From Escherichia phage BF17, in sequence record MW822008.1: 64,000 nucleotides of DNA; one strand, written 5' to 3'. A model generated the notes under the pieces. That model was not told the origin of the DNA. It was given only the letters and a program-made list of their open reading frames with translations, and made no database searches. Shown piece by piece: positions 1 to 24,722 of the stretch. How positions within the stretch are numbered: the stretch's first letter is position 1; each line of letters starts with the position of its first letter. Position numbers and translations under genes: made by a program.

Positions 1-2283
1 CCTGAAACGTCACCAGTTGCGACAACAGAAGATGCATTAATTACACCAAATGTACTTGGGTTAGTTGCACTAACTGATTTTGTTACTACATCAGCAGCAG
101 ACAAATCAATAGCACCAGTTACTGCAAGAGAACCACCCACAGTTACGTTACCAGTAGTTGTTAAAGAAGCAGCACTTACATCAGTAGTGCTTAAATCTAT
201 ACTACTCGGAGTTAGTGTTCCAGTAATAGTTACGTTATTAGCAAAAGTAGTGTCACCAGTAATACTTGGAACAGTTAGTGAAGCCATAGAACCAGCACCA
301 GTTACTGCAAGAGAACCACCAGATAGTGCACCAGCCGCAGTTACTGTATTACCAGATACAGACGCACCAGTAACATCACCAGTACTGGTTACTGAACTAG
401 CAGTTAGGCCAGCTAAAGTAGTGTCCCCAGCAACAGATAGTGTTGTTGTAACATCAACTTTATTTGGGGCGATATCAAGACCATCAACATCAGCTTGGGC
501 AGTTACACCAGTAGTTGTACCAGTTACTACTAAATCACGTACAGTTACAGTTTGACCAGTAACGCTAACATCACCACTGAAAGTACCTTTAGCAGCACTT
601 ACGTCACCAGTGAAGGTTGCAGCAGTACCAGTTAGTGCACCAACAACATTAGCTGTTCCACCAACTTGTAGGTTAGTTCCTACGGTGGTTTGACCAACAG
701 ATTCAAGGGTTTGTCCTTTGATTGCTTCAGCAGCAACAACAGATTTAGGAGTTAGGTCTTGACCACTTACATCAACTGTTAGGCCAGTTACAGTACCAGT
801 GAATTCAACATCATTTAGTACTGATTTACCAGCTACTTGTAGTTGTGGTGTTGCTGGACTTTGTGTACCATTACCAGTAATAGATAGATAATCTAGTTTG
901 TTTAGACCGTTACCTGTGATACCATAGGTTGCAAGAGATGCATCACCAAAGGTAGCAGTTTTTTGTACATTTAGTACTGCTGGAGATACTAGTTCAGACT
1001 GAATTTCATTTTGTAGAATTACAGTTGGACGAGCACCAGGGGCAGAATAAGCAAAACCATACTTAACGTTAGCATCGGCTGCGTTTTGTCCTAAACTTAC
1101 TGCTTTAAAATTAGCAGTACTATTAGCACCGGAAATATCAGCACCCAAAGTTACACCACCAACAAGGCTAGTTAATCCAGAAACAGTTAGAGTGTTTGCT
1201 TCAATATCATCAAGACTGAAAGTACCGCCGAGTGTACCAGATACGTTGATGTTATTAAAATTAGCAGTACCAGTACTTTCAATGTTAGGAATAGTTGCAG
1301 TTCCTGTTACTTCGAAATCATGAACTTTAGTTTTACCTGAAGTTACTTGTAATAGTGGAGTTGTTGGATCTTGAACAGAGTTACCAGATACTGTTAGGTA
1401 ATCTAGTTTGTTTAGACCATTACCAGTAATACCAAAAGTGGATAATGACGAATCACCAAAAGATGCAGTTTTCAATACACTTAGGGTAGCTGGAGACATC
1501 AATTCTGATTGGATTTCGTTCTGTAGAATTACAGTTGGACGAAGACTTGGAGCAGAATAGTTAAAGCTCAAACGGTAGTTAGTGTTTGCAGCATTGGAAC
1601 CAATTTTAATATCACGGAAGTTTGCACTACTATTCACACCAGTAATGTTGGAACCTAATGTAACACCACCTTGTAGACTGGTCAAACCAGAAACAGTTAG
1701 AGTTGTTGCATTAACATCAGATAGACTAAATGTTCCACCTAGTGTACCGGAAATATTCACATCTTTAAAGTTTGCAGTTCCAGTTGATGTAATATCAGTA
1801 GTTGCAGTGTTTGTGAATGTTGCATCAGTTGCAGTTATTGTGTCAAATGCTGCGGTAGTGCCAGTTTCAGCAGTAATGTTACCTTTAAATGAAGAAGTTC
1901 CAAGAACATCCATTGATGCCACTTGGGTATCTTTTAGTACAGCAGTGCCAGCGGTTTGTGTTAGGTTACCTGCCATTGATACTGGGCTTTGGAATTGTGC
2001 ATTAGAATTAATCGTTGCAGTATCAGAACCAACAGGTAAATTACCAATTACGGAATTACCATGAACTTCAATTCCACCATTCAATGATGCTTTACCAGCA
2101 ACATCTAGTGTAGATGAAATGTCTACAGTTTCTGCTTCAATTGCAGTGAATACAGCGTCAGCAAAAGTTACAGTTCCATTAACTGTTAGATTTTTATTGA
2201 ATACTGCATCGCCTTTCACAAGAAGATCTTTAGCAACCGTTGCACCACCAGTTATATCGAGATCTGTTTTAATCGAGTACATT
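1..2283 (-). CDS. Tail fiber protein, N-terminal ~760 aa only (gene runs off the window start)
   Basis: Minus-strand frame is open from ATG at 2281-2283 (RBS GGAGGG, tttggagggaactaaATG) to position 1; no complete minus ORF is listed here and plus ORFs 187-555 and 1582-2064 are antisense shadows. Translation MYSIKTDLDITGGATVAKD... is T/S/G/V/N-rich and beta-fiber-like with an internal ~165-aa duplication. Confidence 0.6.
836..1830 (-). repeat. Diverged tandem duplication (~2 x ~490 bp) inside the partial tail fiber gene
   Basis: Segments ~836-1330 and ~1347-1830 align at nucleotide level (shared runs such as taatctagtttgtttagacc, ttctgtagaattacagttggacg, ccagaaacagttagagt); encoded ~165-aa units are ~70% identical (TGTANF..NISGTLGGTFSL..TLTVSGLTSL..RPTVILQNEIQSEL..GITGNGLNKLDYL). 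Confidence 0.75.
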
Positions 2284-2358: not shown

Positions 2359-2402
2359 AAAAAATCCAGACTAGATGAATCATAGTCTGGACTATTTTTT
2401 TT
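2359..2402. terminator. Intrinsic terminator hairpin flanked by A- and T-tracts (can act on either strand)
   Basis: aaaaa-CCAGACTA-gatgaatca-TAGTCTGG-actatttttttt; lies between the 299-aa gene end (2401) and the start of the partial fiber gene. Confidence 0.6.
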
Positions 2403-3300
2403 ATTTACCGGAAATTACTATTTTACCACTAAACGCTTCGTCAGAAGTGAATGTAACATTACCACTTGCATCAATTTGAGTTTCGGTTATTACCAGTTCA
2501 AATGGTGATGCTGCTGTGCTGCCTGGAGTTTTATTTGAATAAATTGAAATATACAAATTATCAGGTGTTTGGTTATGTTCAGACGCGGGGATAGTAATGG
2601 TGTATTCATCACTAGATACTACCCAATCCGCTTGGTTAATTAATTTACTATAAGGTACTGTCATTGTTGTTGCTCCTATGATGTTGACTTTGACACTTGT
2701 ATAATCAGTGATTTGACCAATAACATCAATCGTAATGTCACCAATACCACTCACAGTGACGTTAGTTTGGAATACAGTGTCAAGTGGGATGTTACCAGGG
2801 TCACCCTGTAGCTGAACCATAATATCTGGTCCACGACCATGTACTGATTCAGGTAAAGAATAAGTATATTGATCTGTTGTTCCAGGAACTAATGTAAATG
2901 CCGATACAGGAACGATTTCAGTAGTAACGTAAGAACTATCAGTACCTGGAGTTGTGCTTTGGAGAGGTTTCCAAACACCAAGGTCTTTAATATAGATCTG
3001 AATAATATTAGTACTGTCAACTAAGAAGTAAGCGTCACCATCTACACCGATTGATTCAGATGGTGCAATAGTTCCACGTAAAATACCGGAACCGCCACCA
3101 CCACCGCTATGTGTATTCAAATAACCCAATGTAACCAAGTGTGTATTTGCGGTTGGGTCACCTGCTGAAACAGGAAGAAGTTGTGTACCCGTGTAGTTCT
3201 GGATTTGAACAACATTACCATTAGTGGCAATTTGTGCACCATTTTTACCAAGTATGAAGGTCTTCTTCATGGTTCCTTCTAAATTAGAAAAAACTGCCAT
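2401..3300 (-). CDS. Tail fiber/tailspike-like protein (299 aa) with the shared N-terminal module MAVFSNLEGTM
   Basis: ATG at 3298-3300 with RBS AAGGAGA; N-terminus identical to that of the next gene; Gly-run linker (HSGGGGGSG) then beta-rich C-terminal domain. Confidence 0.6.
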   Translation of the reverse strand: MAVFSNLEGTMKKTFILGKNGAQIATNGNVVQIQNYTGTQLLPVSAGDPTANTHLVTLGYLNTHSGGGGGSGILRGTIAPSESIGVDGDAYFLVDSTNIIQIYIKDLGVWKPLQSTTPGTDSSYVTTEIVPVSAFTLVPGTTDQYTYSLPESVHGRGPDIMVQLQGDPGNIPLDTVFQTNVTVSGIGDITIDVIGQITDYTSVKVNIIGATTMTVPYSKLINQADWVVSSDEYTITIPASEHNQTPDNLYISIYSNKTPGSTAASPFELVITETQIDASGNVTFTSDEAFSGKIVISGK

Positions 3301-3314
3301 TTTTATAATCTCCT

Positions 3315-5456
3315 TTAAGATAGGGTGATATATGTTATTGGTTGAGCAGCTTTCAATAATGCCCCTGCTGCGGTAGCAGTAACAATCGGATCGGCAATAT
3401 CGATACGATACGCATTATTAACAACATAAACTGCTCTAGTGATATATGTTTTTAAATCTTCGCCGTTTTCCCCTGCTCCTGTGATTAGGATTTCGGTTCC
3501 AGCAGCTTTAGCATATTGATTTTCACCCCATGATACACCCAATGCTTCGATATAAGTTTGTCCTGCAACTGTTTGTCTAATTGTGTCATATCGACCAAAG
3601 AAAGAACCACCTACTGTAACAATAAATTTTCCACCTGATTGTTTATGGATAATTGTTCCTTCTGGGAAATATCTCCCACCAGGAAAAACATCATAAGGCA
3701 CGTAATACTGTTCAACTACAGGTATTACTACAGGTCCACGATGACCCGTTCCATCAATTGCAGTGGTTACTTTAAAGTTATTAGATGATTGGTCAATACG
3801 GTCAACATACATTCTTGAGAAACTATATTTTGATATGTTACAATCATCTTGAACAACACAATTAGTCCAGTTGGTATATGTATATTTAGAGCGAGTATAT
3901 AAGCCCCCTCCTTCACCTTCAGTTGCAAGGTGTTGTCCAATAACATCAAGTTCTTTAGTACTGATATTATTAAACTTGGAAGATGACGGCAATCCACGCC
4001 ATTGAATTCTACTACATGTAATATTAGAAAGTTCAGTAGTATTTAGCCAATTATCAGAGCCTGATGTATGCACAATAATAGACGACTCAGGAATGTGGAG
4101 ATTACATAATTTAAAGTTACGTGGAGGACCAGCAAATTTACCAGATGTTACACCCCAGTTAATAGAAACCATACGGTTAGTTACTGATGGATCATTTAAT
4201 AGATGTCCAGATAGGCCATCAATAATAAAATCAACAGAACCATAAGTAATTACACCAGCGGTTGTCAAACCAGTACCAATTGATACCAATGTCGATGGAT
4301 AAACTTCATTATTAAGAATTTTAAAGTCTTTACCCAATTCAACGTGAATACATTGACGAACATTGTATAAGCGGTTATTTTTTATAACGAATTTTTTTAC
4401 ATATTGTGAATCATCTGCATTCACATCATAAGGACCAGAACCAGCAACGCCGATACCAATACCCCAGTTTGAAAGAGGAATTGGTGCATCTGTACCATCT
4501 ACGTTTTCAATCAAGTTACCTTCTATTACAAAACCGTCTGGGTAATGTGAGTTGACTACGTTCAATTCAATTGCATCACCATATATATCATGGATGTGGT
4601 TGTATGAATAACGCCCAACTGTCATTTTCTCACCAGTGCCTTGCTGAAGAACACCGTACTTACATTGTGTCATTTCATTAAAGCAGAAGTCGATAGTACC
4701 TGATTCAGTCATACCTTGCATTAGAAATGCAGCAGTACTTGTAATATTAATAAATTTATTAAAATAAAATTTACCATTACCACCAAAGAATTTTAAATAA
4801 CATCCTGTTAATGTTGCTTGTTGGATTGTACTATTCAGTACTGATACCATTGTTCCACCGTTACCAGTGATTGTTCCACCAAACCATTGAATATCATTCA
4901 AATAAACAGCAGTTCTGATACGATAATTACCACCAGCTTGAATTTGGATTTGGTGTTCTTTTGCATAAACTGCACATGCGTTAACCGCCGCCGTGTCATC
5001 AGTGATGCCATCACCTTTTGCACCAAACTCTTCTGGAGTTATGTAAAACTGTGCCTGTTGGAGTGTTCCTCCAGTAATAAGTCCGATATAATCAGCACCG
5101 TTAACACTGGAAAGGACATTTTTATTAATGTATAATGATTTTACCCAAACATCATTTGTTTTTGCAAAGATATCAACAATACCCTCAGAATCAACTTGAA
5201 AATAAGTGTTGTTATTTTTACCAATGTCATTTGTTGGTGGAAGCACGCCAAATAAAGCATTTGGGTTATCTTCAAGATACCTAACGTTTACTGCGGAATC
5301 ATCGTCATTAGGAGTTCCCACCTTAACAGGTAGGAACGTTTCGCCTAAAAAGTCTTTGATTGCGACAGAATCGTTTACAAAATTAATAGAAGCACCACGT
5401 TTACCCAACTTAAATGTTGGCATCATGGTTCCTTCTAAATTGGAAAAAACTGCCAT
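3315..5456 (-). CDS. Tailspike protein with right-handed beta-helix / pectate-lyase-like domain (putative polysaccharide depolymerase), 713 aa
   Basis: ATG at 5454-5456 with RBS GAGGG; N-terminal MAVFSNLEGTM module; motif EEFGAKGDGITDDTAAV is the classic signature of pectate-lyase-fold tailspikes. Confidence 0.65.
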   Translation of the reverse strand: MAVFSNLEGTMMPTFKLGKRGASINFVNDSVAIKDFLGETFLPVKVGTPNDDDSAVNVRYLEDNPNALFGVLPPTNDIGKNNNTYFQVDSEGIVDIFAKTNDVWVKSLYINKNVLSSVNGADYIGLITGGTLQQAQFYITPEEFGAKGDGITDDTAAVNACAVYAKEHQIQIQAGGNYRIRTAVYLNDIQWFGGTITGNGGTMVSVLNSTIQQATLTGCYLKFFGGNGKFYFNKFINITSTAAFLMQGMTESGTIDFCFNEMTQCKYGVLQQGTGEKMTVGRYSYNHIHDIYGDAIELNVVNSHYPDGFVIEGNLIENVDGTDAPIPLSNWGIGIGVAGSGPYDVNADDSQYVKKFVIKNNRLYNVRQCIHVELGKDFKILNNEVYPSTLVSIGTGLTTAGVITYGSVDFIIDGLSGHLLNDPSVTNRMVSINWGVTSGKFAGPPRNFKLCNLHIPESSIIVHTSGSDNWLNTTELSNITCSRIQWRGLPSSSKFNNISTKELDVIGQHLATEGEGGGLYTRSKYTYTNWTNCVVQDDCNISKYSFSRMYVDRIDQSSNNFKVTTAIDGTGHRGPVVIPVVEQYYVPYDVFPGGRYFPEGTIIHKQSGGKFIVTVGGSFFGRYDTIRQTVAGQTYIEALGVSWGENQYAKAAGTEILITGAGENGEDLKTYITRAVYVVNNAYRIDIADPIVTATAAGALLKAAQPITYITLS

Positions 5457-5470
5457 TTATCAACCCTCTT

Positions 5471-6598
5471 TTAAATGTTATCTTGAATAGGCTGAATAGG
5501 TGCTTGCCATGATAAAGTACAAACGATCTTCATTTCACCAAATGAACTGTTGTTTACGGAATCATTGAATACACAAGAAATGATTTCATCTTTACTTGAC
5601 ACTTCATGGTTGGTTTCGTTAACAATGTAACGCATTTTGCGGTTGATATCGAAATAATCAACAGGTGCAATTACAGTACCACCAATATCTTCTTGTGCTT
5701 CACCACCGAAACGTACAAACATTTCACTTACTGGTTCATCATATGCTTGGTTAATATCAACTTCGATATTAGTTACTAGGTATCCAGCAGGGCATGTACC
5801 AATAACTAACAATGCGTTGGTCCATGAATGATCAATAGTGTTGATGATAACAACTGTATCTTTACCTGGTTCACCCTGAATACCTGGTTCACCTTGCTTA
5901 CCTTCTTCACCGTCTTTTCCACGGAATAAGATGCCAGCACTCCACTCTTTAGTTGGGGTGGATGATGTAGTTACGATATCAACATAATACAAATTACCAT
6001 CAGTAGTGTTATAGAAGCAATAATCTTGTGGTAGATTATCAATGCTTGGGAATTGACTACCAGTACTATCAATGTGGAAACGACCACGTAGACCCTGTTC
6101 ACCACGGAAAGGAACACCATCACTCCATGTTGCAGTTACGCTTTGATAGAAATATAATTTACCATCTTCAGTATTATAGAAGGTATAGTTATTGACGAGG
6201 CCAGTTGTTGGAAACACAGTACCGGAACTGTCAATGTGGAATGGTTTACCAGCTTCACCAGTATCACCTTTACCAAACTCTACACGGTTCCAAGTACTAA
6301 TTGTTTCTTGTGCATCGTTTGATTTAAAATATAAAGTACTAGTGCCGTTTGCAAGACTAAGATAACACCACCCTAGTTCTTCACCAACACGGAAGAGTTC
6401 ATTAGGAACTTCAAAACCTATCTCATTTGGATAAAAGTTTCTACCGTTAGCACCATTTTGTCCAACCACTAGACCTAAGTCTTGGATTGTATTGTCGGAA
6501 TAGGTTACAATTAAATGTCCAGCAGCGTTAATAACTAAACTTTTGATGCCAGAATTATTACATGAACCACCTGACCCATTGTTGAATGAAATTGTCAT
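5471..6598 (-). CDS. Collagen-like repeat tail fiber protein (~375 aa; ORF track start 6634 is less likely)
   Basis: ATG at 6596-6598 is preceded by RBS AAGGGAAA, whereas the 6634 ATG has none; G-x-y triplet runs (GKDGEEGKQGEPGIQGEPGKD, GDTGEAGKP, GEQGLRG). Confidence 0.55.
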   Translation of the reverse strand: MTISFNNGSGGSCNNSGIKSLVINAAGHLIVTYSDNTIQDLGLVVGQNGANGRNFYPNEIGFEVPNELFRVGEELGWCYLSLANGTSTLYFKSNDAQETISTWNRVEFGKGDTGEAGKPFHIDSSGTVFPTTGLVNNYTFYNTEDGKLYFYQSVTATWSDGVPFRGEQGLRGRFHIDSTGSQFPSIDNLPQDYCFYNTTDGNLYYVDIVTTSSTPTKEWSAGILFRGKDGEEGKQGEPGIQGEPGKDTVVIINTIDHSWTNALLVIGTCPAGYLVTNIEVDINQAYDEPVSEMFVRFGGEAQEDIGGTVIAPVDYFDINRKMRYIVNETNHEVSSKDEIISCVFNDSVNNSSFGEMKIVCTLSWQAPIQPIQDNI

Positions 6599-6662
6599 AA
6601 TATTTCCCTTGTATGAGTTAATGTCATATACCAATATTTATCAGTACAAAATACATTTCGTT

Positions 6663-14683: not shown

Positions 14684-14715
14684 AGAAAAGGAGAGCAAAT
14701 GCTCTCCTTTTTGTT
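14684..14715. terminator. Bidirectional intrinsic terminator
   Basis: aaaa-AGGAGAGC-aaat-GCTCTCCT-ttttgtt between the clp gene (+) and the giant gene (-); almost the same sequence recurs at 60449-60480. Confidence 0.75.
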
Positions 14716-17700
14716 ATTTAACTTCTAATAGATTTTTAATGTCATTACCACTTATTTGCAAACTATCGGAGTAAACAGATAGTTCGATTGGATAACTGTT
14801 AACACTATAACGTTTTAGTAAATTAACTTTACCTAAGTTCAAGCCATTAAATGAATATGTCACATTCTCTTTAAAGTCGTGTTCTGCACTATACATTACC
14901 CCACGGAGTAAGTTATTTGCAAAACGTACTTCAACTTTTTCAAAACCAAGAGAAATAATATCATTCATACTTGCACCAGCACCAGATAGAACATTATTAG
15001 TAACACTATATGGACTAACTGAATCTGGTTGTGAAACATAAGTAGCATTTTCTTCACTGATAGCAGTAATGTTAGTTACTGTTCCACCAACTACACCAAT
15101 ATATGTATCACTAACTAGTGGATATGCATATTCCCATACCCCGTCAGCATTCAGTACTGGTTGAATAATACCAACATCATACTCGAACACGTTAATTTCC
15201 ACACTATCAGTCATTTTGGTTCTCACTAACTCACTAAGAACACCTGCACCAGTAATTGGTAAGTTATATCCGTTATCAATGGTAACACCATCAACTTCAA
15301 ATATCTCGTTAGACACTACCCAAACATCAACGTCATCTGGTGTAATTCCATCATTATAAGAACCACCGTATAGTGTTGTGTCGTAGAATACTTCATAGTT
15401 CATTGCGTCGATAGCATAATTTCTATTTGTTTCATACAACTTAACACCATCAACCAAGAATTCTGGATCAGCAAAGGTTCTAATACGAACGATGTTCAAT
15501 GCTAGAGGTATTGCTGGTTCATTCTGTTGTTGTTTAGTGATGTTATCATAACGAAGCACAACTCCAGTACTATCTAGTAGTTCTACAGTTCCGTTCGCAG
15601 TGTTTCTTACTGTGTACAAGGTTGGTGTGGTGTCAGTTTTGATTTTTGATACACTCAAGATGGTTTCCCATGCATTGTTTTGGTATCTCACATAATCTTC
15701 ACCATCAGTTGTGAATATCATAACCTTATCACCATCAGATAGGGTATTGTCAATTACTTCAGCTTCTGTATCACTAACAATTGATTTAATTTTATAGAAG
15801 TATTTTTCATCATACTTACTGTATGATTTACTAATATCATTTTCAATCTTAGCGTAAGAAGGAATACTAACAATTGCTTCTGTTGTTTTATAAGGGTTGA
15901 TAATAACCATACCTTCAGTTTTATATCTACTATTGTCTCTCAATTGAACTAGTGAAACACTATTGAATCCATAACCATCAACTGTGAAGCGAATCTGACC
16001 AATCTTTCTTCCTGATGGGTTAATATCAGAAATGTCGATTATGTACGGATCTACTTCGTCACCTTCAACTTCCCATTTTAACTCGGAAGTTTGTGATTCA
16101 AGTGCTAGGTTATCAAATGCATTCATATCATCGTAGTACTTAGCATCGGTGATGCTATCTAGGATGTGCTGATAATCACTGTACATTGGGTTATTTCTAT
16201 CAAGAGGTAAGTCATCAAGATTTATTTCTGCCAATTGAACTAGTTGACCGTCAGTTATGAATTTGTCTTCCATGAAATCATCAATGCTTTGGTCATCTGG
16301 GATACTCTCGTATACACCATTAACATTAACATAAACATATTTTCGTGGCATCATAGTAAATGCATGAATATCAATAGGCATTCTACTTAGTATTTCTTCA
16401 GCCTTTTCATAATGGTCGGTAGCATCTTTGTCATACAAACCACGCATACCGGACAATACATGAATTGCGTCATTGTAGAATCGTTGATTTCCATTTTCAT
16501 CTACATGGCGATATGAATAAACACCATATTCAACTTCAAGTATAATTCTAACTTCATCATCAGTTGCAGTAGTATTGTTTTCTTTAATTAAAGAAACATA
16601 CTTATTATACAACTCACTACTAACTTCAAAGTAACCAAAGTTATAATCAGTACTGGATGCATAACCAAACGGTAGTCTGGTACTTGGATTATCATCATAG
16701 GTTAACCCACTAAATCCACATCCAACCTCATCATGAATTACTTCATCATCTGCACCTGTGTACAATTTCAAACGGTTAGAGAGTGTGTTATACTGAACAT
16801 AATGATTTACGTCATTAAACATTTCATTTTGTGTTGATTCTTTATATACACGATTCAACGTTTCTGTGAATTCTGCGGTTGCTACCAAATCATCTGCATG
16901 GTCTGCATACCATTGGTTAACACCGTAAGCAATCCCTAGAGTTACGTTCAATTCTGGGTAATACAATTGCATCTGATAAGCAACCAATAGGTCGAAATCT
17001 TCATCACTGTATTCTGGGAATGTATATTTGTAACGTTGTAATTCAAAATTACTAACAACATCTTGTGCATTAGATTGATATTTCTTATTCACTTCTTCCA
17101 ATACATCAACACTTGCCAAATTATCATTTGGTTTACATTGAGTGTTGTCGTAGTGCATGATAACATCAATTTCTTGGAAACGGCGATTAGGTGTTACGAA
17201 ATCACTTGGCAATTCACCAACTTGCTCCCAACGTTGAGTTACCTCATTGAATTGAGCATATTCATAATCCCAAATGTCTTTTTCCGTTTTAACCCAAGTC
17301 CCATCTGCAAATATATAGCCATTAGGATCTAAATCATTACACAAACCTTTAATTAAATCATCATCTGAAGTTTTCTGTTCAATCTGGGAACGAATCTTAG
17401 TTCTATATGGTTTAACTTCTTCAAAGTACTCAACGATTTGATTAATCAAGTTGTCGTTGGAATAGTTCTGTACTAATGATTGTTCTAAACCTACAATATA
17501 AATGTAAGATGTTTTGAATACCCAATCAACAACGCTTTGTTCTACGTGAACATACTTAACCATATCAAACACAATTTCACTCTGATGTAAGTCGAATGAG
17601 TTCTTCAATAAAGCTAGTGCTTTACGAACGTTAATCTCACGATTACTCAACGAACCATTAGCATCACGAACTGTATAGTCAGCGTATAACATATCATTCA

Positions 17701-20700
17701 ATTCAACTGTACTATTTTCACGACCAATTGCTTTCCAGTAAACTGAATCACGTGATTGTGCTTTAATGTACAATGTCCAGATGCCATCAACATCTGTAAT
17801 TCTGATAATGTCACCAACTTGATAGTTCTTAGTGTTTGCATCTTCTAGGCTGGATTCTTGTGTATATGCAGTATTTTTATCGTATCCAATATCATACCAA
17901 TCTGCTAGTGACCAGTACTGGGTCATGTCCAATGAAGTTCCTAGTGCTTCAACATAGTCTGATTGTTTAATCATTTTCTGTTGACCTTCACCACGGTTTT
18001 CCAATGTAATGGTAACCACACTACCAGCACTTGATGGACTATTCATTAGATGAATATAACCATTAGCATCAATATGCACAAAATATACAGAGCTAGTTGA
18101 TAGTGGGGTAGGTAATACACCACTAGTACTTACTAGTACTGCGTCGTTTTCTTTGAACTTGTCACTTTCAGGTGCAATGACTAATTCACTATTGTAAGTT
18201 AGCACACGATATGATACTTCATTCGGGTTAACTTCAGTAGTTTTAACATTAAACACTTCGTCCATTAGAACAGTGTTAGTTGTTATATTCTGTGAGCGAT
18301 AATAGTTATTTGCACTTTCTACAAAGTTTCTACGAGCTTCAATTACATCTTGGAACCAAGTCTTATTAGAACCTAAACCGTTTGGTACTAAAGGATATAG
18401 TAAATCAATAACAGTTCCTGATTCAGTAGTTTCTTGACCAATCATAGAATTCCACATAGAAGTCCAGATTGATGGATTGAAGTTATAGCTATCACCTTCT
18501 TTACATAATTGATACTGGTCATGTTTAATAACTTCAGTATTATCCATGTAATAAGAAACAGTTAAAATACTTGTGTCATCGTTGACTTCAAATTGCATAT
18601 TACTTAGAATGAACGAGCTTTCATTGATTGGTGCAAACCAAGGAATGTTAAGCTGTGCTGGTTCTTTAATAATACGAGCAATATCAGTACAAGATTTAGT
18701 TCTGGAATGTAATGGTGGTACATAAATTGTATCACGAACCCAGAAATAGTATTTTGTAACATAAGTATCAGTTGTGCTATCATATTCTAAGAACGTACTA
18801 TAATTATCTTCCAATGCGGTTCCGCTTGGTAGGTACATAGTGTTGTTTTTATTTTTGTTAGCAACGTCTTTACAGTATTTGTCCCAGTTATATGGTTCAA
18901 CTGGTGAACATACCCATTCAAGAACATCAACAGTACTGTGCGGTAACAATCTACCCCAGTTATAACGTTTATATTCATTTGTTGCATCAACATCCACATT
19001 ACCGTCAGCATCATAGATTGCACGAGTGTAATCTAAGTAGAAAGCAGTGCTGGTGTTCCACCAAACCTGACCAACTTTATCAGCACCCCATGCTTGAATC
19101 AATTCACCATTGCTGTTGTATTGTGCTGGGTCAACTGGAGATGTGTAGGTAACGTTCTGCATCGCTGCACCAGGAATAACACCGTTGATTGGGTCAAACA
19201 CGTTTAGGTACAACGCAGTAATGTTAGTACGTTCATCATATGTAGTTGGACGGTCAAACAAAGTACTTTGTGGAGCTTTAAAACTATATTTTCTGTCAAT
19301 GTATTCCTGACGCATCTCTTCAGTACTGAATCGTGAAACATAACGATACAAGCGTGGGCGAGTATCAGGATCAGTGAAGTCAATAGTGATTGAAGTGTCA
19401 AACGGAACTACCATAACTCTAGGGTCATTACCCGCAGTATAATATTGACTTTCTATAGTCAATGTATCTGGCATAAAGTTAGTTTCATCAACAAAGTAAT
19501 AATAATCACCATCATTTAGTGGGATATCATCACTTAGAGTTACTTTACAGAATTGTTCTGCATATACATCGGTATTTTCAATTGGAACGATAGAGAGCAT
19601 CTCAACTTCAGTGTCTACTAGTTCGAAAATATTCCACAAATCATTACCATCTTTAAACATCCATACAGAATCTGGGATTTCACCACTGTTATTCATATAA
19701 TTGATACGATCATTATATGCAGTACTGAAATCTTTAGTAACGTATGAAATTTCATCTAGTGTTACAGGACCAATGTCTGGAAGTTGGATATTCTCACTTC
19801 TTCCACTACGCATTGGGAATGAAAACTTACCATTTGGACGAGTAATCCAGCGTGAGTCAACCCCTTGTTCACCGTAATAAACAATACCATTACCAGTACC
19901 ATTTGATGTAGCATTAACATCAAACGAAACCATCTGTGGTTGTTGTTTAAATTGGTCATTGATTAGTTTAAATTGTAGATTTTTCTTACCATTGATATTA
20001 CCATAAGTACCAATCTTAAATGCCCATTCCTGAAGTGCTTTATATTCATCAGTGTCGTAAGATTTAGAAACGCGTAGTACTTTTTCCATTACTTGGTTAG
20101 TACCTTTGTCATGAATGAATCCTTTATAGAAATCAACACGACTAACATCACTACTAATCATACGTTGTAGATAATCACGAGTTTGATAGCCAATCAAGTG
20201 ATTTGATAACTCTTGAAGCTGAACATCACTCACAGGAGTTTCACTATTATAATATAATTCAAAATCAGTTACTAATTTTTCAAATGATGGTAAAGTTCCT
20301 GCTTCTAGGATAATGAAACCAGGTGCTTGTAGGCGACCAGTCCATGACCCAGTAATGTAACCATACATTTTAATCAATTCTTGAATAGCACCATAAGTTG
20401 GTTGGTAAATGTAATCACCAAAGATAGTTTTATCATCAAAAACAACTGCGTGTTCATATGAACTTAGGCTCAAACGAATCAACGCCATACGTTTTTGTGA
20501 TTCAGATGTAGTTCTCACTGTGAATACGTTACCGATACGCGAAGTTTCGATTTCATATTGACGGATGCCTTGGTTTTCATCATCGAGTAGTGACCAAACA
20601 CCACCACTATTCTGTGTAACAGATTGAACTGAACCAAAATCCGCACCAAATTTAGCATTAGCTGCACTTGGAGTACAGGAGATGAACTCACCAGTACTTA

Positions 20701-23700
20701 AATTATTCTGACTCCAAATAACAAAGTCTTTAGCAATAGTTGTCCAGTCTTGTTGAGTACCACTATCATTTACATCTTCAAAAATCCAGCCATGTTCTTT
20801 TAGATATTCACCATATCCACAAATGAAAGTATAAACTTCTTGGTATGTATTGAATATTTTACCATATTCTAATGTACCTTCAGATTTCCATTCATTGTAA
20901 TGAACAACAGTTCTGTCTTCCAATTTAAGAGTTACTTTTCTTCCATTTTTAACTGGAATTTTATATTTAAATTTAGCACCAACTAAATCATAACCATCAA
21001 TTTGATATGCACTACCATTCCAAGTAATTTTTACTGCACTCATTTGCTCATCGCGAATGTTATTGGAACGAACTAGACCGATAGTTTGGTTTTCTTGTGA
21101 AATCAAACCGAAAGATTTAGCAGTGAATGTCAATTGGTCTGCTTTAGTAAAGCCACCAATTTTGTGAGCGACATTGACATAAGAAGAACGAACAACGTCA
21201 CCGTATTTGGTGGTAATGTTCTTATTCTGATACATCAAATAGTCACTAACAAACATTTGATAACCGATAGTACGGGTGTTTTTCTCACCATGTACTAATG
21301 TAGTACTGTCAAAGTTTAGACGCTTACGGGTTTCACCATAAAGGAACTGTGAACCATCAGTATAAACTGGTTTAAGGTTATCATTACGGGTATCCCAGTA
21401 ATAGTTTGCAAACTGTGCTGGTTTTGCTTTGTATAGAAGAAGCATTTGGTCATAAGCAAACATCGCAGTGTTCATGTAAGTGAATTCCATGTCACCCATG
21501 TCACCATAAGACCACGGTTCTGCACGATGATCTAAATTACCACTAACAAGACCTAAAACTTCAGGTGCAATATACTCAACTTCACAAATATCAATACCAG
21601 TACTGGTTTTCTCGCCAGTCTTAGTGATTTTAAATGGCTGTACACCGAAACGCTTGTATTTGTCATATTGACCACGGCGTTCACCTGACAAAATAGTACC
21701 AGTACTGCTATCACCGATAGTACCATCAATATCCCACAATCCACTTGGGACCAAATCACCATTTTCATTCATTACTAGTGCTTCATACACATAAACAACA
21801 TCACCCTCACGTTCACCAACTTGAACTGCGGTTGGTTCGTATTCTTGGTTCCACCAAGTAGGACGTTGAGAGAAGCCCATCATTTCCCACGGATGGGTTG
21901 CTGGACGATATGTGCCATATTGGTCAGTATAGATTGCACGCCATGAACCACGAGCAGGAATTTCAGTACGTTGACCATCAACAACATAATAACTACCAGT
22001 ATAGTTCCAAGTTCTCCAGTTATTTGCATCATAATCATGAGTACTGTTACTAATGCCATTGGTTGCTGTGAAGTTAATGTAACCACGTAGTAATAGAGTT
22101 TTCTTTTCTTCTGCACTATAATCAGTACCAGTGAAATATGGAGTTGGGAATAGGTCTTCACTGTTTAGTACTGGTTTATAATCAATATCCTTGAAAGTAA
22201 GATCAATACTATTAAAGATACGATTTTCCAATTCAAAAACTACGTCATCCATTTTATCAACACCATTGATAACACGGTATGCTTTTGAAATAATACCAGT
22301 ATGACTGATATTATAACAGCTAGATTTACTACCAGCAGTTAAGAATGTTGCTTTTTGTGGTGTATAAGCTTGCAAAATACCCAAGAACTGTGGAGTTGGT
22401 GGGACAAATGCACGAATAAACCCAGCAGTGCTTGCAACGTTGTCATAGTAGAATGGGAATGTACTATCACGTCCCATATTAATAGCTGTTAGAATCGCAT
22501 CTACGATGTTTGATGCACTATTACCAAGAAAAGCACTTGGGTCTTCTTCATACAAACGAAGCATTTGAGTGTTGAACTTGTTAATGAAGCGGAAGTATTC
22601 TGCTTGCATAAACATGATTGATTCAAACAAATCAATATCTTCATTAGCGGTATGTGCCATTAGTGGTAACATGGACGCTTCGTTTTGAATAATTTTAGTG
22701 CCTACACCATTATTAACCAAACCAGCAGCCAAACGTTCTTCGTAATTGTTAAAGTCATCAGCAGAACCAGATGTAATATTCTTTTGAATAATATCTTGGA
22801 AGTGCAGGGTGTAATCACCTTGGTTGATGTATTCAATGTTTGAATTATATGGGTTATTTTGTAGATTAATTGGAACTTCATATGCACCCAACTCTTTATT
22901 AGGAGTGATAGTGCTACTATAAGTTCTGATTTGTACAACAGAATCTTCATCCAAATCAACAGAGCTATCAATTGTAATACTTTGTACTTGATTATTAACT
23001 ACAGTTTTTGTGTATTCTTTTATTTCCACACCATCAACAACTAGTTCGATAATATCATCAGAATTATCTAGTACTTTTTGTGCCAATTCAAATGTATGAT
23101 TGTACTTAACGCTTTGTACCCCATCACCAACGATAACATGCCAATCAAGATATGTTTCACGTTCTGCTTTGTAATATTGATAAGTTCTGTCAACTTCAAT
23201 TACATAAGCATACATTCCTTCAACTGGGTCTTTGAAACTTTCCATGTCATAAACAGTACTGAACACGCGGAACATTACTGTACGTTCAACCTGTGGAGTT
23301 TGTTTAACATATTGTTTGGAGTATTCAGTACTACGAACCCAATCAGTTTCTAGGTTCATTGTATTACCTTCACCAATTACGTTATAGTAATATAGTCCAT
23401 CAATTTCAACTTCCACACCCAAATGCTCGTAAGTATAACGAGTTGATTGTAGGAAATTCTCATATGTGTAATAATTGTAATCACCTAGTTCAATATTATA
23501 ACCATAAACGCTATCAGTTGCATAATTATAGTTAATTTTAAAACCAAATAGTGAAGAACCAGTAAAAGTACTTGATGGATAGGTAGTAGTGTTGTTTAGT
23601 TTAACACCATTACGGTCATACAATTGGAATTGTGGAAATACGTTCACAGAAGTTTTAGACTGTGCTTGAATCCAATGAGAACCGTCCCAATACATGGAAC

Positions 23701-24685
23701 TGTTACCAAATTCATTACCTTTGATAATAAGAACTACGTCACCATCTTGTGGTTCACCACTCGGACGGCTTTCAGATTCTTCGTCTGGATCTAATGCTAG
23801 ACCATACACACGTGTTCCATCTTGCATACGTTTAACATATACTTTATAAATTCGGTTGTTTTCACCATTGTTACCAATACTGGTGAAAAGAATACGCATA
23901 CCATCTTGTGGAATAATACCATCAATACGTATACCGCTGTTAATATCTTTTTGTACGATATCTTCAGGTTTAATAATATCAGAGAACAAATCAACTGTCC
24001 CACGGAATTTAGTACCGTAGTTCATTAGTTCGATATTTTTATTGTATTCGATAATTGGTGCACGAGCACGAACAAAACGGGAATCTTGCATTAGTTCTTC
24101 AGTTAGGATAGTACCATCTTCTAAAGTTTCACCTAATGTGTACCAGAAGTTTTGTAGTGACCAAGTGTTACCATTTTCTGCACCACGTTCCATTACAATA
24201 TAATCTGGAGTTGTGATATTATAGCTATTCTTGGAATCCCATAGGTATGAACTGTAGTTGTTCATTTTATTTGGGTTAATTGGTGGGGTCCATGAATAGA
24301 ACTTACCATTAAACAAACGGCTTTCATTTTCGGTTAGTGCACCGTAATGATTCATATAGCCAACTAGATCATCATAAAATTGAATTGAACGAATGCTGGA
24401 GTCATCATTTCTTGAGACATACGCAGTGGACAACTGATATAGTTGACGTGCGACTGTTGACTCGTGTAAGAAGATGTTCCCTGCTGCTGCCGGAGAACCC
24501 ATGTCACCAATGTAGCCGTCAACTAATTCGTTTTCAGCCGGATTAAACCATTGTTGGATAACATCATCACTGACTTTCTGAATATCTTCTAAGCCTTGCA
24601 TCCACTCAGGCAATCTTTTTATGAAAAGCTTCTTCTGTACTGCTTCAGCCATCTGTGTAGGTTGAAACTTAAAATTATTAGTCAT
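14714..24685 (-). CDS. Giant virion protein (~3,320 aa), baseplate or tail-fiber associated by synteny
   Basis: Single uninterrupted ORF. Preferred start ATG 24683-24685 (MTNNFKF..., RBS GGAG 9 nt upstream); the ORF-track start 24715 lacks an RBS. Follows the gp6-like gene in the baseplate operon. Confidence 0.7.
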   Translation of the reverse strand: MTNNFKFQPTQMAEAVQKKLFIKRLPEWMQGLEDIQKVSDDVIQQWFNPAENELVDGYIGDMGSPAAAGNIFLHESTVARQLYQLSTAYVSRNDDSSIRSIQFYDDLVGYMNHYGALTENESRLFNGKFYSWTPPINPNKMNNYSSYLWDSKNSYNITTPDYIVMERGAENGNTWSLQNFWYTLGETLEDGTILTEELMQDSRFVRARAPIIEYNKNIELMNYGTKFRGTVDLFSDIIKPEDIVQKDINSGIRIDGIIPQDGMRILFTSIGNNGENNRIYKVYVKRMQDGTRVYGLALDPDEESESRPSGEPQDGDVVLIIKGNEFGNSSMYWDGSHWIQAQSKTSVNVFPQFQLYDRNGVKLNNTTTYPSSTFTGSSLFGFKINYNYATDSVYGYNIELGDYNYYTYENFLQSTRYTYEHLGVEVEIDGLYYYNVIGEGNTMNLETDWVRSTEYSKQYVKQTPQVERTVMFRVFSTVYDMESFKDPVEGMYAYVIEVDRTYQYYKAERETYLDWHVIVGDGVQSVKYNHTFELAQKVLDNSDDIIELVVDGVEIKEYTKTVVNNQVQSITIDSSVDLDEDSVVQIRTYSSTITPNKELGAYEVPINLQNNPYNSNIEYINQGDYTLHFQDIIQKNITSGSADDFNNYEERLAAGLVNNGVGTKIIQNEASMLPLMAHTANEDIDLFESIMFMQAEYFRFINKFNTQMLRLYEEDPSAFLGNSASNIVDAILTAINMGRDSTFPFYYDNVASTAGFIRAFVPPTPQFLGILQAYTPQKATFLTAGSKSSCYNISHTGIISKAYRVINGVDKMDDVVFELENRIFNSIDLTFKDIDYKPVLNSEDLFPTPYFTGTDYSAEEKKTLLLRGYINFTATNGISNSTHDYDANNWRTWNYTGSYYVVDGQRTEIPARGSWRAIYTDQYGTYRPATHPWEMMGFSQRPTWWNQEYEPTAVQVGEREGDVVYVYEALVMNENGDLVPSGLWDIDGTIGDSSTGTILSGERRGQYDKYKRFGVQPFKITKTGEKTSTGIDICEVEYIAPEVLGLVSGNLDHRAEPWSYGDMGDMEFTYMNTAMFAYDQMLLLYKAKPAQFANYYWDTRNDNLKPVYTDGSQFLYGETRKRLNFDSTTLVHGEKNTRTIGYQMFVSDYLMYQNKNITTKYGDVVRSSYVNVAHKIGGFTKADQLTFTAKSFGLISQENQTIGLVRSNNIRDEQMSAVKITWNGSAYQIDGYDLVGAKFKYKIPVKNGRKVTLKLEDRTVVHYNEWKSEGTLEYGKIFNTYQEVYTFICGYGEYLKEHGWIFEDVNDSGTQQDWTTIAKDFVIWSQNNLSTGEFISCTPSAANAKFGADFGSVQSVTQNSGGVWSLLDDENQGIRQYEIETSRIGNVFTVRTTSESQKRMALIRLSLSSYEHAVVFDDKTIFGDYIYQPTYGAIQELIKMYGYITGSWTGRLQAPGFIILEAGTLPSFEKLVTDFELYYNSETPVSDVQLQELSNHLIGYQTRDYLQRMISSDVSRVDFYKGFIHDKGTNQVMEKVLRVSKSYDTDEYKALQEWAFKIGTYGNINGKKNLQFKLINDQFKQQPQMVSFDVNATSNGTGNGIVYYGEQGVDSRWITRPNGKFSFPMRSGRSENIQLPDIGPVTLDEISYVTKDFSTAYNDRINYMNNSGEIPDSVWMFKDGNDLWNIFELVDTEVEMLSIVPIENTDVYAEQFCKVTLSDDIPLNDGDYYYFVDETNFMPDTLTIESQYYTAGNDPRVMVVPFDTSITIDFTDPDTRPRLYRYVSRFSTEEMRQEYIDRKYSFKAPQSTLFDRPTTYDERTNITALYLNVFDPINGVIPGAAMQNVTYTSPVDPAQYNSNGELIQAWGADKVGQVWWNTSTAFYLDYTRAIYDADGNVDVDATNEYKRYNWGRLLPHSTVDVLEWVCSPVEPYNWDKYCKDVANKNKNNTMYLPSGTALEDNYSTFLEYDSTTDTYVTKYYFWVRDTIYVPPLHSRTKSCTDIARIIKEPAQLNIPWFAPINESSFILSNMQFEVNDDTSILTVSYYMDNTEVIKHDQYQLCKEGDSYNFNPSIWTSMWNSMIGQETTESGTVIDLLYPLVPNGLGSNKTWFQDVIEARRNFVESANNYYRSQNITTNTVLMDEVFNVKTTEVNPNEVSYRVLTYNSELVIAPESDKFKENDAVLVSTSGVLPTPLSTSSVYFVHIDANGYIHLMNSPSSAGSVVTITLENRGEGQQKMIKQSDYVEALGTSLDMTQYWSLADWYDIGYDKNTAYTQESSLEDANTKNYQVGDIIRITDVDGIWTLYIKAQSRDSVYWKAIGRENSTVELNDMLYADYTVRDANGSLSNREINVRKALALLKNSFDLHQSEIVFDMVKYVHVEQSVVDWVFKTSYIYIVGLEQSLVQNYSNDNLINQIVEYFEEVKPYRTKIRSQIEQKTSDDDLIKGLCNDLDPNGYIFADGTWVKTEKDIWDYEYAQFNEVTQRWEQVGELPSDFVTPNRRFQEIDVIMHYDNTQCKPNDNLASVDVLEEVNKKYQSNAQDVVSNFELQRYKYTFPEYSDEDFDLLVAYQMQLYYPELNVTLGIAYGVNQWYADHADDLVATAEFTETLNRVYKESTQNEMFNDVNHYVQYNTLSNRLKLYTGADDEVIHDEVGCGFSGLTYDDNPSTRLPFGYASSTDYNFGYFEVSSELYNKYVSLIKENNTTATDDEVRIILEVEYGVYSYRHVDENGNQRFYNDAIHVLSGMRGLYDKDATDHYEKAEEILSRMPIDIHAFTMMPRKYVYVNVNGVYESIPDDQSIDDFMEDKFITDGQLVQLAEINLDDLPLDRNNPMYSDYQHILDSITDAKYYDDMNAFDNLALESQTSELKWEVEGDEVDPYIIDISDINPSGRKIGQIRFTVDGYGFNSVSLVQLRDNSRYKTEGMVIINPYKTTEAIVSIPSYAKIENDISKSYSKYDEKYFYKIKSIVSDTEAEVIDNTLSDGDKVMIFTTDGEDYVRYQNNAWETILSVSKIKTDTTPTLYTVRNTANGTVELLDSTGVVLRYDNITKQQQNEPAIPLALNIVRIRTFADPEFLVDGVKLYETNRNYAIDAMNYEVFYDTTLYGGSYNDGITPDDVDVWVVSNEIFEVDGVTIDNGYNLPITGAGVLSELVRTKMTDSVEINVFEYDVGIIQPVLNADGVWEYAYPLVSDTYIGVVGGTVTNITAISEENATYVSQPDSVSPYSVTNNVLSGAGASMNDIISLGFEKVEVRFANNLLRGVMYSAEHDFKENVTYSFNGLNLGKVNLLKRYSVNSYPIELSVYSDSLQISGNDIKNLLEVK

Positions 24686-24722
24686 TTTTGGACTCCATAT
24701 AATTCGTTCATTCATTTGATTT

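Follow-up and report, generated by a model that had tools for sequence, protein, structure and literature searches.

Results

The long-fiber gene and its product

The window, a 64,000-nucleotide stretch of the Escherichia phage BF17 genome (MW822008.1), begins within a long tail-fiber gene on the minus strand. Its 5' part (3..2282) encodes residues 1-760 of about 1638, and the remainder lies past the window start. The open frame runs from an ATG at 2282 to base 3 and then off the window, and it is absent from the list of open reading frames because it leaves the window end. The sequence-only reading had called this a partial tail fiber, and several lines of evidence bear it out. The PHROG 4549 'tail fiber protein' profile matches the 760-residue window protein (E = 1e-121, 408.7 bits), and 757-759 of the 760 residues are identical to the 1638-aa fibers of WPEC3 (CDS402) and Turkey3 (XMR01217). 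Orthologs are present in virions, as demonstrated by mass spectrometry for phAPEC6 Gp256 (PMC7247149) and CBB_226 (PMC5259590), and, according to a note in its sequence record, for fENko-Kae01 255c. On sequence grounds, the phage is a jumbo coliphage of the Asteriusvirus (121Q/PBECO4-like) group, and the gene product is its predicted long tail fiber.

By profile, N-terminus, and gene neighbourhood, the window fiber belongs to the jumbo-phage 'MYSIKTDL' long fiber family of Asteriusvirus, Mimasvirus, and Eneladusvirus. The N-terminal region (aa 1-166, MYSIKTDL...; 1785..2282, minus strand) is kept across all orthologous jumbo-phage fibers and is common to 121Q, EJP2, fENko-Kae01, CBB, Yen9-03, pEa19, and P0014-P0021. 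Presumably this is the attachment end, a role assigned solely from its position. Neighbouring genes for a tail protein, a virion structural protein, a NUDIX protein, and a sheath-completion protein are shared by 121Q, WPEC3, CBB, fENko-Kae01, Yen9-03, EJP2, and pEa19, and a colanidase tailspike gene and genes for small virion proteins adjoin the fiber gene. Phages of this group bear 'hairy' tail or capsid filaments (PMC7247149, PMC5259590), and the fiber protein could be either a baseplate fiber or one of these filaments. At the other end of the window protein, the start of the distal shaft (aa 507-760; 3..764, minus strand) is rich in threonine, glycine, and serine and carries a recurring motif, TGTxTG...DVxGxDxxPxxV, at 738-800 and 456-524. 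This region aligns to repeated segments of the phiTE fiber. Its divergence from the 121Q group is too great for megablast, which finds matches only from window positions 702-739 onward.

Two diverged units in tandem

Between the N-terminal region and the distal shaft lie two related units, head-to-tail, in frame, and with no spacer. Unit 1 (aa 167-336; 1275..1784, minus strand) ends in ...EVTGTATIPNIES and abuts unit 2 (aa 337-506; 765..1274, minus strand), which begins one residue later, ends in ...VEFTGTVTGLTVDVS, and is followed by the distal shaft. The period of the array is exactly 510 nt, or 170 codons. Earlier figures for this duplication, namely positions 836-1830, a unit of ~490 bp or ~165 aa, and ~70% identity, were close and are here refined to positions 765-1784 with minus-strand coding, 510 bp or 170 aa, and 65-66% identity in protein and 68% in codon-aligned DNA.

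A DNA repeat search recovers two direct-repeat pairs, each at 510-nt spacing (831-1049 / 1341-1559, 74% identity; 1108-1274 / 1618-1784, 72% identity). The protein identity is measured over an alignment of 169 positions, interrupted by a single one-residue indel, and the Smith-Waterman score of unit 1 against unit 2 is 573, compared with 96 +/- 12 (maximum 142) for 200 shuffles. The self-comparison by which the sequence-only reading proposed to judge the repeat thus places the similarity far above shuffled controls. A profile HMM of the unit scores 330-337 bits on both units and <=1 bit elsewhere in the window protein. Threonine, glycine, serine, leucine, and asparagine make up 55% of unit composition, and the strictly conserved residues of the unit core are F, G, D-Y, G-N, and V-x-G. 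The most conserved block, GITGNGLNKLDYL, in which the D-Y and G-N columns are invariant, lies at aa 284-296 of unit 1 (1395..1433, minus strand) and at aa 454-466 of unit 2 (885..923, minus strand). Tandem Repeats Finder returned no row for the array, which is uninformative because the program handles periods of at most 500 nt and the copies fall under its identity range (about 70%). The feature is a diverged tandem intragenic duplication, as the sequence-only reading had proposed.

Copy number differs among relatives

A word-indexed protein search with a single unit gave two fragments, and we used a full HMMER scan instead. A single unit is found in fibers of Yersinia and Erwinia phages (Eneladusvirus), in fibers of the rV5/phiTE type, and on two metagenomic contigs; the one-unit set includes Yen9-03, pEa19, P0008, and rV5 gp28. 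Two units are found in 121Q, fENko-Kae01, and CBB, which is the state of most Asteriusvirus isolates. Three are found in EJP2, in JP4 (2129 aa), and in Turkey5, whose second fiber (2120 aa) carries them and falls in the P0014 cluster; some members of this cluster are on 354-356 kb contigs. The CRJP21 genome gave three unit matches and the JNE01 genome five. The unit 2 of the window fiber recurs at 100% identity in eight phage records, all sequenced independently. Seven of the eight hold four units, like the two-by-two arrangement of WPEC3 and Turkey3, and TH47 has a single fiber gene with two units. The same tandem arrangement recurs in >25 independently sequenced phage genomes.

Comparison with the fiber genes of relatives therefore confirms that repeat copy number varies, and the earlier proposal that module duplication alters fiber length agrees with orthologs holding 1, 2, or 3 units, from which a change in physical length would follow. 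These data demonstrate that the module was duplicated repeatedly and independently in jumbo-phage lineages and is single in more distant fibers. The gene neighbourhood is unchanged across one-unit (Yen9-03, pEa19), two-unit (CBB, fENko-Kae01), and three-unit (EJP2) phages, and JP4 has three units yet a truncated colanidase gene; among the relatives compared, unit number did not co-vary with the fiber or tailspike genes nearby.

Age of the duplication and selection on the copies

Identity between the units at third codon positions is 48%, and a codon alignment gives pS 0.62, dS about 1.3, and dN/dS 0.20, with synonymous sites close to saturation and a longest identical run of 21 nt. Both copies have been retained under purifying selection. 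121Q gp571 and a paralogous second fiber gene (fiber B) carry unit 1 and unit 2 at identical positions. Unit 1 of the window fiber groups with the unit 1 of other fibers (amino-acid identity 72% for 121Q gp571, 75% for fiber B) and not with unit 2; for unit 2, identity to the corresponding unit is 78% in both 121Q and fiber B. In neighbour-joining trees, calculated without support values, the unit 1s of the window phage, 121Q, and fiber B cluster together, as do the unit 2s. The duplication thus predates the split of the 121Q-type fiber, the window fiber, and the paralogous second fiber. Gene conversion between the copies is rejected for the window clade by the placement of unit 1 and unit 2 in separate clades; in phage A4 / P0015, whose two units cluster together, concerted evolution is possible. 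The array in BF17 appears to be a stable ancestral two-copy state rather than an active recombination hot spot.

A crossover footprint and single-unit forms

The middle unit of JP4 is a chimera of an N-terminal unit 2 part and a C-terminal unit 1 part. Before aligned nt 322, informative sites are 94 unit3-type and 16 unit1-type, and after it they are 7 and 54 (Fisher p = 3e-22). The switch lies just upstream of the block equivalent to GITGNGLNKLDYL. Unequal homologous crossing-over has expanded the array to three units in close relatives, leaving the unit2/unit1 hybrid behind.

Single-unit Logan contigs were assembled from two independent samples, SRR20818753 and ERR13965906. Their sequences match at 99.1% identity and have a common junction, at which identity to 121Q jumps from 76-78% to 92-93%. 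They are short (2.2-2.4 kb) and have premature stops or frameshifts. We considered whether the P0007 single-unit contig is an assembly chimera, which is less likely given that an independent second run shares its junction, though the frames are disrupted.

Predicted fold of the module

The AF2 monomer model of the module (pLDDT 78.8) has almost no intrachain secondary structure by DSSP. Foldseek found no match to it in the PDB and sequence relatives only in BFVD. Among solved structures, a PDB sequence search (E <= 10) returned a sole relative, the phiTE fiber 9CUY chain g. The authors of that structure computed an AF3 trimer in which the fiber past residue 171 is predicted to form a very extended beta-helix, with 512 A for the 793 aa (PMC11972413). 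The module is thus probably an intertwined trimeric beta-helix segment and not a self-contained globular domain, an assignment based on the monomer model and the prediction of another group. Hydrophobic periodicity, a weak analysis, gives a weak lag of 15 for the unit core and lags of 6 and 12 for the shaft, a difference that may mark the core as a separate knob or joint, unlike the plain shaft. Neither Pfam nor NCBIfam assigned the fiber or its units to a family, and the only hits were sub-threshold noise (MmoB and bactofilin, for example); PF26208 and PF26209 are listed for distant homologs.

Discussion

We propose that a structural module of 170 residues, placed proximally in the long fiber, was duplicated in frame and in tandem long ago and would tune length there as a beta-helical segment, and we regard this account as likely. 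Each copy would lengthen the fiber by very roughly 10 nm, just distal to the attachment end, a value scaled from the predicted 512 A for the 793 residues of the phiTE fiber. Given such an added length per copy, copy number would tune fiber reach or flexibility.

An alternative that we consider unlikely is that the module serves as a functional station: an accessory fiber, a tailspike, or a small virion protein would dock on it within a branched network of fibers, or it would be a carbohydrate-binding node, and the number of partners or contacts of the fiber would then depend on copy number. The module sits directly past the attachment end in every family member, including the phiTE long fiber, which has been proposed to contact other fibers (PMC11972413). 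Its strictly conserved core residues, a periodicity unlike that of the shaft, and the colanidase tailspike and small virion proteins encoded next door also fit such a role. Against it, the immediate gene neighbourhood is the same in phages with 1, 2, and 3 units, JP4 combines three units with a truncated colanidase gene, the AF2 monomer has no compact fold, and no binding domain was matched in the searches of Pfam, NCBIfam, and the PDB. We likewise think it rather improbable that the module is a discrete docking or contact site for fibers, tailspikes, or 'hairy' filaments, or a hinge, as opposed to a passive spacer. Were it a station or hinge, unequal crossing-over would change partner number or swing and allow quick re-tuning of adsorption to capsulated hosts.

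The sequence-only reading had also suggested that the duplication could drive recombination or deletion variants. For the family this holds, since JP4 carries the unit2/unit1 hybrid, and single-unit contigs occur in two independent samples. It does not extend to BF17 as a current hot spot. That the BF17 repeat is recent or actively recombining, yielding deletion and expansion variants in lysates today, would be compatible with the one-unit and three-unit forms and the crossover chimera of relatives, and phages encode recombination systems able to use short homologies. We nevertheless judge it very improbable: the BF17 copies share only 68% of their nucleotides, dS is about 1.3, no identical run exceeds 21 nt, unit 2 is unchanged in eight relatives, seven of which keep the four-unit two-by-two arrangement, and each unit of the window clade has its orthologous counterpart in 121Q and in fiber B.

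We give almost no credence to the view that the similarity is a by-product of low-complexity, T/G/S/N-rich beta-helix sequence with no true duplication. The fiber is compositionally biased, short shaft-like repeats (repeat families D3-D13) are dispersed through the gene, and the first ~60 unit positions weakly match other shaft regions. The two units are nevertheless collinear over 169 residues with one indel at an exact 510-nt spacing, and both the composition-preserving shuffles (z-score near 40) and the unit HMM refute this view. A repeat collapsed or expanded during assembly, for which the general tendency of repeats to cause misassembly offers no specific support, is refuted with equal firmness by the 32% nucleotide difference between the copies, which allows unique read mapping, and by recurrence of the arrangement in more than 25 independently sequenced genomes.

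The old duplication of a structural module is therefore real but an ordinary case of fiber change by module duplication, a familiar theme that changes no concept. Its value lies in offering a clean, datable case in the poorly understood jumbo coliphages, with a defined 170-residue unit and a recombination footprint. The natural one-, two-, and three-copy alleles in cultured phages are a ready-made experiment on fiber length, adsorption, and host range, and the unit boundaries offer safe cut points when engineering these fibers. Our analysis also corrects misleading gene labels (T4 gp34-like, FliK, and autotransporter).

Comparison with known fibers

The closest known counterparts are the Asteriusvirus long fibers (121Q gp571, 1841 aa; phAPEC6 Gp256, 180 kDa; PBECO4, G17, and Sharanji), which are orthologs of the window fiber. 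121Q gp571 shares the MYSIKTDL N-terminus, the synteny with a virion protein, colanidase tailspike, and tail protein, and two units at aa 167-336 and 337-506 that are 72% and 78% identical to those of the window. It differs in a diverged distal shaft and C-terminal part, with megablast identity gone below window position ~700, and in its length of 1841 aa against 1638 aa for the window-type fiber. The literature that we examined on Asteriusvirus long fibers makes no mention of the internal repeat. Three-unit fibers (JP4 CDS0665, 2129 aa, and the second fiber of Turkey5) belong to the same family and keep the same exact 170-aa period, with units at 167-336, 337-506, and 507-676, one more than the window fiber. 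The extra unit is the chimera in JP4 and an older copy, 85% identical to unit 1, in Turkey5, whereas the window phage has no hybrid.

More distant are fibers that share the module core at unit positions ~46-170: those of the rV5 gp28 type in Vequintavirinae and relatives, and the long fiber of Pectobacterium phage phiTE (793 aa; chain g of PDB 9CUY/9MJN). There the module likewise stands just past the N-terminal attachment domain, and the shaft motif TGTxTG...DVxGxDIxP recurs. These are trimeric baseplate fibers, and the experimental phiTE model covers residues 14-171, so that the part homologous to the module lies outside it (PMC11972413). They differ from the window fiber in having a single module of about 25-33% identity, another N-terminal domain, and much shorter proteins (581-1084 aa). 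The unit core is homologous to this single-copy region of the rV5 gp28 / phiTE long-tail-fiber module family: phmmer aligned query 382-546 to residues 207-371 of 9cuy_g (E = 1.1e-19), the unit HMM matched rV5 gp28 at 6e-16, and tblastn covered unit positions 47-169 in V5-like phages.

Many GenBank records label these genes 'long tail fiber proximal subunit' (T4 gp34-like), and this appears to be positional or nominal, as no Pfam match rose above noise and a PDB search (E <= 10) returned no gp34 fragment. Labels of FliK hook-length control or autotransporter in the CMSTMSU, EJP2, and Yen9-03 records have no supporting Pfam or NCBIfam matches. The resemblance to better-known fibers is one of architecture. 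The adenovirus repeat is about 15 residues, against 170 here, and the sequences are unrelated; in T4 gp34, with its repeated domains, and in the shaft of the adenovirus fiber, as in the window fiber (probably also a trimer), structural repeats stand in tandem in a trimeric fiber with a copy number that differs between relatives, and there the number of shaft repeats sets fiber length.

Results

A tandem duplication in the proximal tail fiber

The 5' part of a long tail-fiber gene lies at 3..2282 on the minus strand (ATG at 2282), an open frame of 760 residues that continues past the window start. Within it we identify two adjacent, in-frame copies of a 170-residue module that align end to end: unit 1 (residues 167-336; window 1275-1784, minus strand) and unit 2 (residues 337-506; window 765-1274, minus strand). 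Their proteins are 65-66% identical with one single-residue indel, and their local alignment score is 573, compared with 96 +/- 12 (maximum 142) in 200 shuffles. A repeat search of the window found two direct-repeat blocks, both at a 510-nt offset (831-1049/1341-1559, 74%; 1108-1274/1618-1784, 72%). A profile of the two units gives each of them 330-337 bits and the rest of the window protein about zero; the similarity is therefore not due to T/G/S/N-rich composition. Tandem Repeats Finder reports no array at the fiber locus, its period limit being 500 nt and the copies too diverged. The array is a genuine and ancient tandem duplication, within one gene, of a module in the proximal fiber. A sequence-only reading had recognized the duplication, which self-comparison of the gene confirms, but its dimensions (836-1830, ~490 bp or 165 aa, ~70% identity) were approximate: the array spans 765-1784 in units of 510 bp, and the identity is slightly lower.

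Codon-aligned, the units are 68% identical in nucleotides and 48% at third codon positions, with pS 0.62, dS about 1.3 (near saturation), pN 0.22 and dN/dS 0.20; the longest identical in-register run is 21 nt. Both copies have been maintained by purifying selection. The orthologous long fiber of Asteriusvirus 121Q, gp571, carries two units at positions identical to those in the window fiber, and both units are also present in a second, paralogous fiber (1906 aa) that adjoins the ortholog of the window gene in Turkey3 and WPEC3. Across these fibers, units of the same type share 72-75% (unit 1s) or 78% (unit 2s) identity, compared with just 57-67% between unit 1 and unit 2, and neighbor-joining trees place the unit 1s and the unit 2s in clades of their own. 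Given the shared positions and the two clades, the duplication is older than both the fiber divergence and the whole-gene duplication. Identities and trees show no sign of concerted evolution between units in this clade.

Unit copy number among relatives

The sequence-only reading had suggested comparing repeat copy number in the fiber genes of relatives; a unit profile combined with tblastn found one, two or three units there. One unit is present in Yersinia fHe-Yen9-03/04, Erwinia pEa_SNUABM phages, Serratia BF and a metagenomic protein (P0008); two in most Asteriusvirus isolates, fENko-Kae01 and CBB, where a spacer separates them; and three in EJP2, JP4 (2129 aa) and the Turkey5 second fiber (2120 aa), which belongs to a cluster (P0014) with members on 354-356 kb contigs. 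Matches counted per genome rather than per gene number three in CRJP21 and five in JNE01. The module family is small, since just 15 clusters contained it in a full HMMER scan covering 1.84 billion representative proteins. The module core (positions ~46-170) is single-copy in the shorter fibers of rV5-like phages and their relatives (rV5 gp28, KpS8, CR3, phiTE). According to the unit trees, duplication occurred separately in the lineages of 121Q-type, EJP2/fENko-type and CBB fibers.

The second fiber gene lies directly after the first in WPEC3 and Turkey3 (loci L001 1-3216 and L003 1569-7289), and the matches of fEgEco12 and vB_Ec-M-J are likewise 4 kb longer; a single fiber gene is present in TH47 (98.8% identical) and in the 121Q group. 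Fiber copy number is thus polymorphic at the whole-gene level too. The equivalent position for the window phage lies beyond the window start.

Recombination footprints

In JP4, unit 1 shares 99% identity with 121Q unit 1, and the last unit, of unit 2 type, 92% with 121Q unit 2. The middle unit is a mosaic: among the sites that distinguish JP4 units 1 and 3, it is unit-3-like at 94 of 110 before aligned nt 322 and unit-1-like at 54 of 61 after it (Fisher p = 3e-22), and the switch point falls a short way upstream of the best-conserved block, YGITGNGLNKLDYL. Two-unit genes that pair out of register and cross over unequally would yield a unit 1 - (unit 2-N/unit 1-C) - unit 2 array, and the JP4 array is exactly this expected product. 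The Turkey5 second fiber has an older copy as its middle unit, which matches unit 1 at 85% identity and resembles unit 2 in some patches toward its start.

Assemblies from two different sequencing runs (SRR20818753 and ERR13965906; Logan contigs L010 and L014) contain a single-unit fiber whose unit is of unit-2 type over its full length. These contigs are short, contain a stop or frameshift, are 99.1% identical to each other and have their junction in common. Their nucleotide identity to 121Q rises from 76-78% over the upstream gene and N-terminal 166 aa to 92-93% from the unit onward, at the exact unit boundary, which suggests that the N-terminal attachment region was swapped there in mosaic fashion. 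The contigs probably, though not certainly, represent a naturally occurring mosaic lineage with one unit.

Structure of the module

The nature of the module is the least certain part of our reading, and family libraries (Pfam, NCBIfam) give it no name. By sequence, it has only one relative of solved structure, the phiTE fiber (9CUY chain g, E = 1e-19), in which residues 14-171 alone were built experimentally; the remainder, including the part homologous to the unit, is a highly extended beta-helix in the AF3 trimer prediction of the authors, who put the whole 793-aa fiber at 512 A (PMC11972413). On a rough scaling from that prediction, each unit would lengthen the fiber by about 11 nm. Our AF2 monomer of unit 2 with flanks (27-sequence alignment) has mean pLDDT 78.8, pTM 0.52 and nearly no intrachain secondary structure, as a chain removed from an intertwined trimer would. 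Foldseek recovered no PDB structure, and its BFVD matches were all sequence relatives. Judging by a crude hydrophobic autocorrelation, the unit core seems to lack shaft-like periodicity, so a distinct joint or knob is possible.

A motif of ~21-23 residues, TGTxTG...DVxGxDxxPxxV, occurs at the end of unit 2 and again in the distal shaft (738-800 and 456-524, minus strand). The phiTE fiber contains three occurrences of it, and it recurs in proteins P0009-P0011 as well; the motif may mark where segments of the shaft join. Against the 121Q group, megablast identity (about 79%) ends at ~702-739, immediately distal to unit 2; both units and the attachment end are conserved, and the distal shaft has diverged much further or been replaced.

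The fiber gene and its neighbors

Over its first 8 kb, the window shares 98-99% identity with the Escherichia jumbo phages Turkey3, TH47, WPEC3/5, EC.P1, Ecwhy_1, fEgEco12 and vB_Ec-M-J, and ~79% with the 121Q/PBECO4/phAPEC6/G17 group (genus Asteriusvirus). The window protein matches PHROG 4549 'tail fiber' (1e-121) and is identical at 757-759 of 760 residues to the N-terminal part of the 1638-aa WPEC3 and Turkey3 fibers; orthologous fibers all start MYSIKTDL. Mass spectrometry places its orthologs phAPEC6 Gp256 (180 kDa; PMC7247149), CBB_226 (PMC5259590) and fENko-Kae01 255c in virions. Annotation of relatives has problems: records label the fiber 'colanic acid-degrading protein' (WPEC5), 'flagellar hook-length control protein' (CMSTMSU, EJP2) or 'autotransporter' (Yen9-03), and no Pfam, NCBIfam or PDB sequence match backs the common labels 'long tail fiber proximal subunit' (T4 gp34-like), 'FliK' or 'autotransporter'. 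The vB_Ec-M-J fiber (P0003), called as 1049 aa, differs from WPEC3 in its last four residues, likely through a frameshift.

Neighboring genes encode a virion structural protein (2401-3300), a 713-aa colanic-acid-degrading tailspike two genes from the fiber (3315-5456, minus strand; PHROG 6117, 2e-252) and a tail protein (5471-6634). The tailspike counterpart in three-unit JP4 (L012 5826-6431), annotated at just 606 nt, appears truncated. The largest window ORF (3333 aa; 14714-24715, minus strand) is probably the counterpart of the 382-kDa phAPEC6 virion protein Gp245 (PMC7247149). ARAGORN found no tRNA or tmRNA genes in window 1-64000.

Discussion

Unequal homologous recombination drives the evolution of the array, which ranges from one to three copies across relatives. 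The expectation that the duplication could drive recombination or deletion variants holds for relatives, given the JP4 chimera and the range of copy numbers, but not as frequent recombination in the window phage. There, the two-copy array is probably the conserved ancestral state; unit 2 is identical in eight relatives, and the copies share too little DNA identity to recombine often.

Module number most likely affects how long or how flexible the fiber is beside its attachment end, in keeping with the earlier view of module duplication as a way of changing fiber length. Each module could instead be a docking or contact station on the fiber; this is less likely, as unit number varies without co-variation in neighboring genes. 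The array may lend itself to fiber engineering and to a simple length-versus-adsorption comparison.

The fiber gene is already in GenBank, and the Asteriusvirus, CBB and phAPEC6 papers examined contain no description of the repeat or its copy-number variation. Repeat-number variation in fiber shafts is itself textbook knowledge, and the array described here is of modest interest as a new, tidy case of a known type of event.
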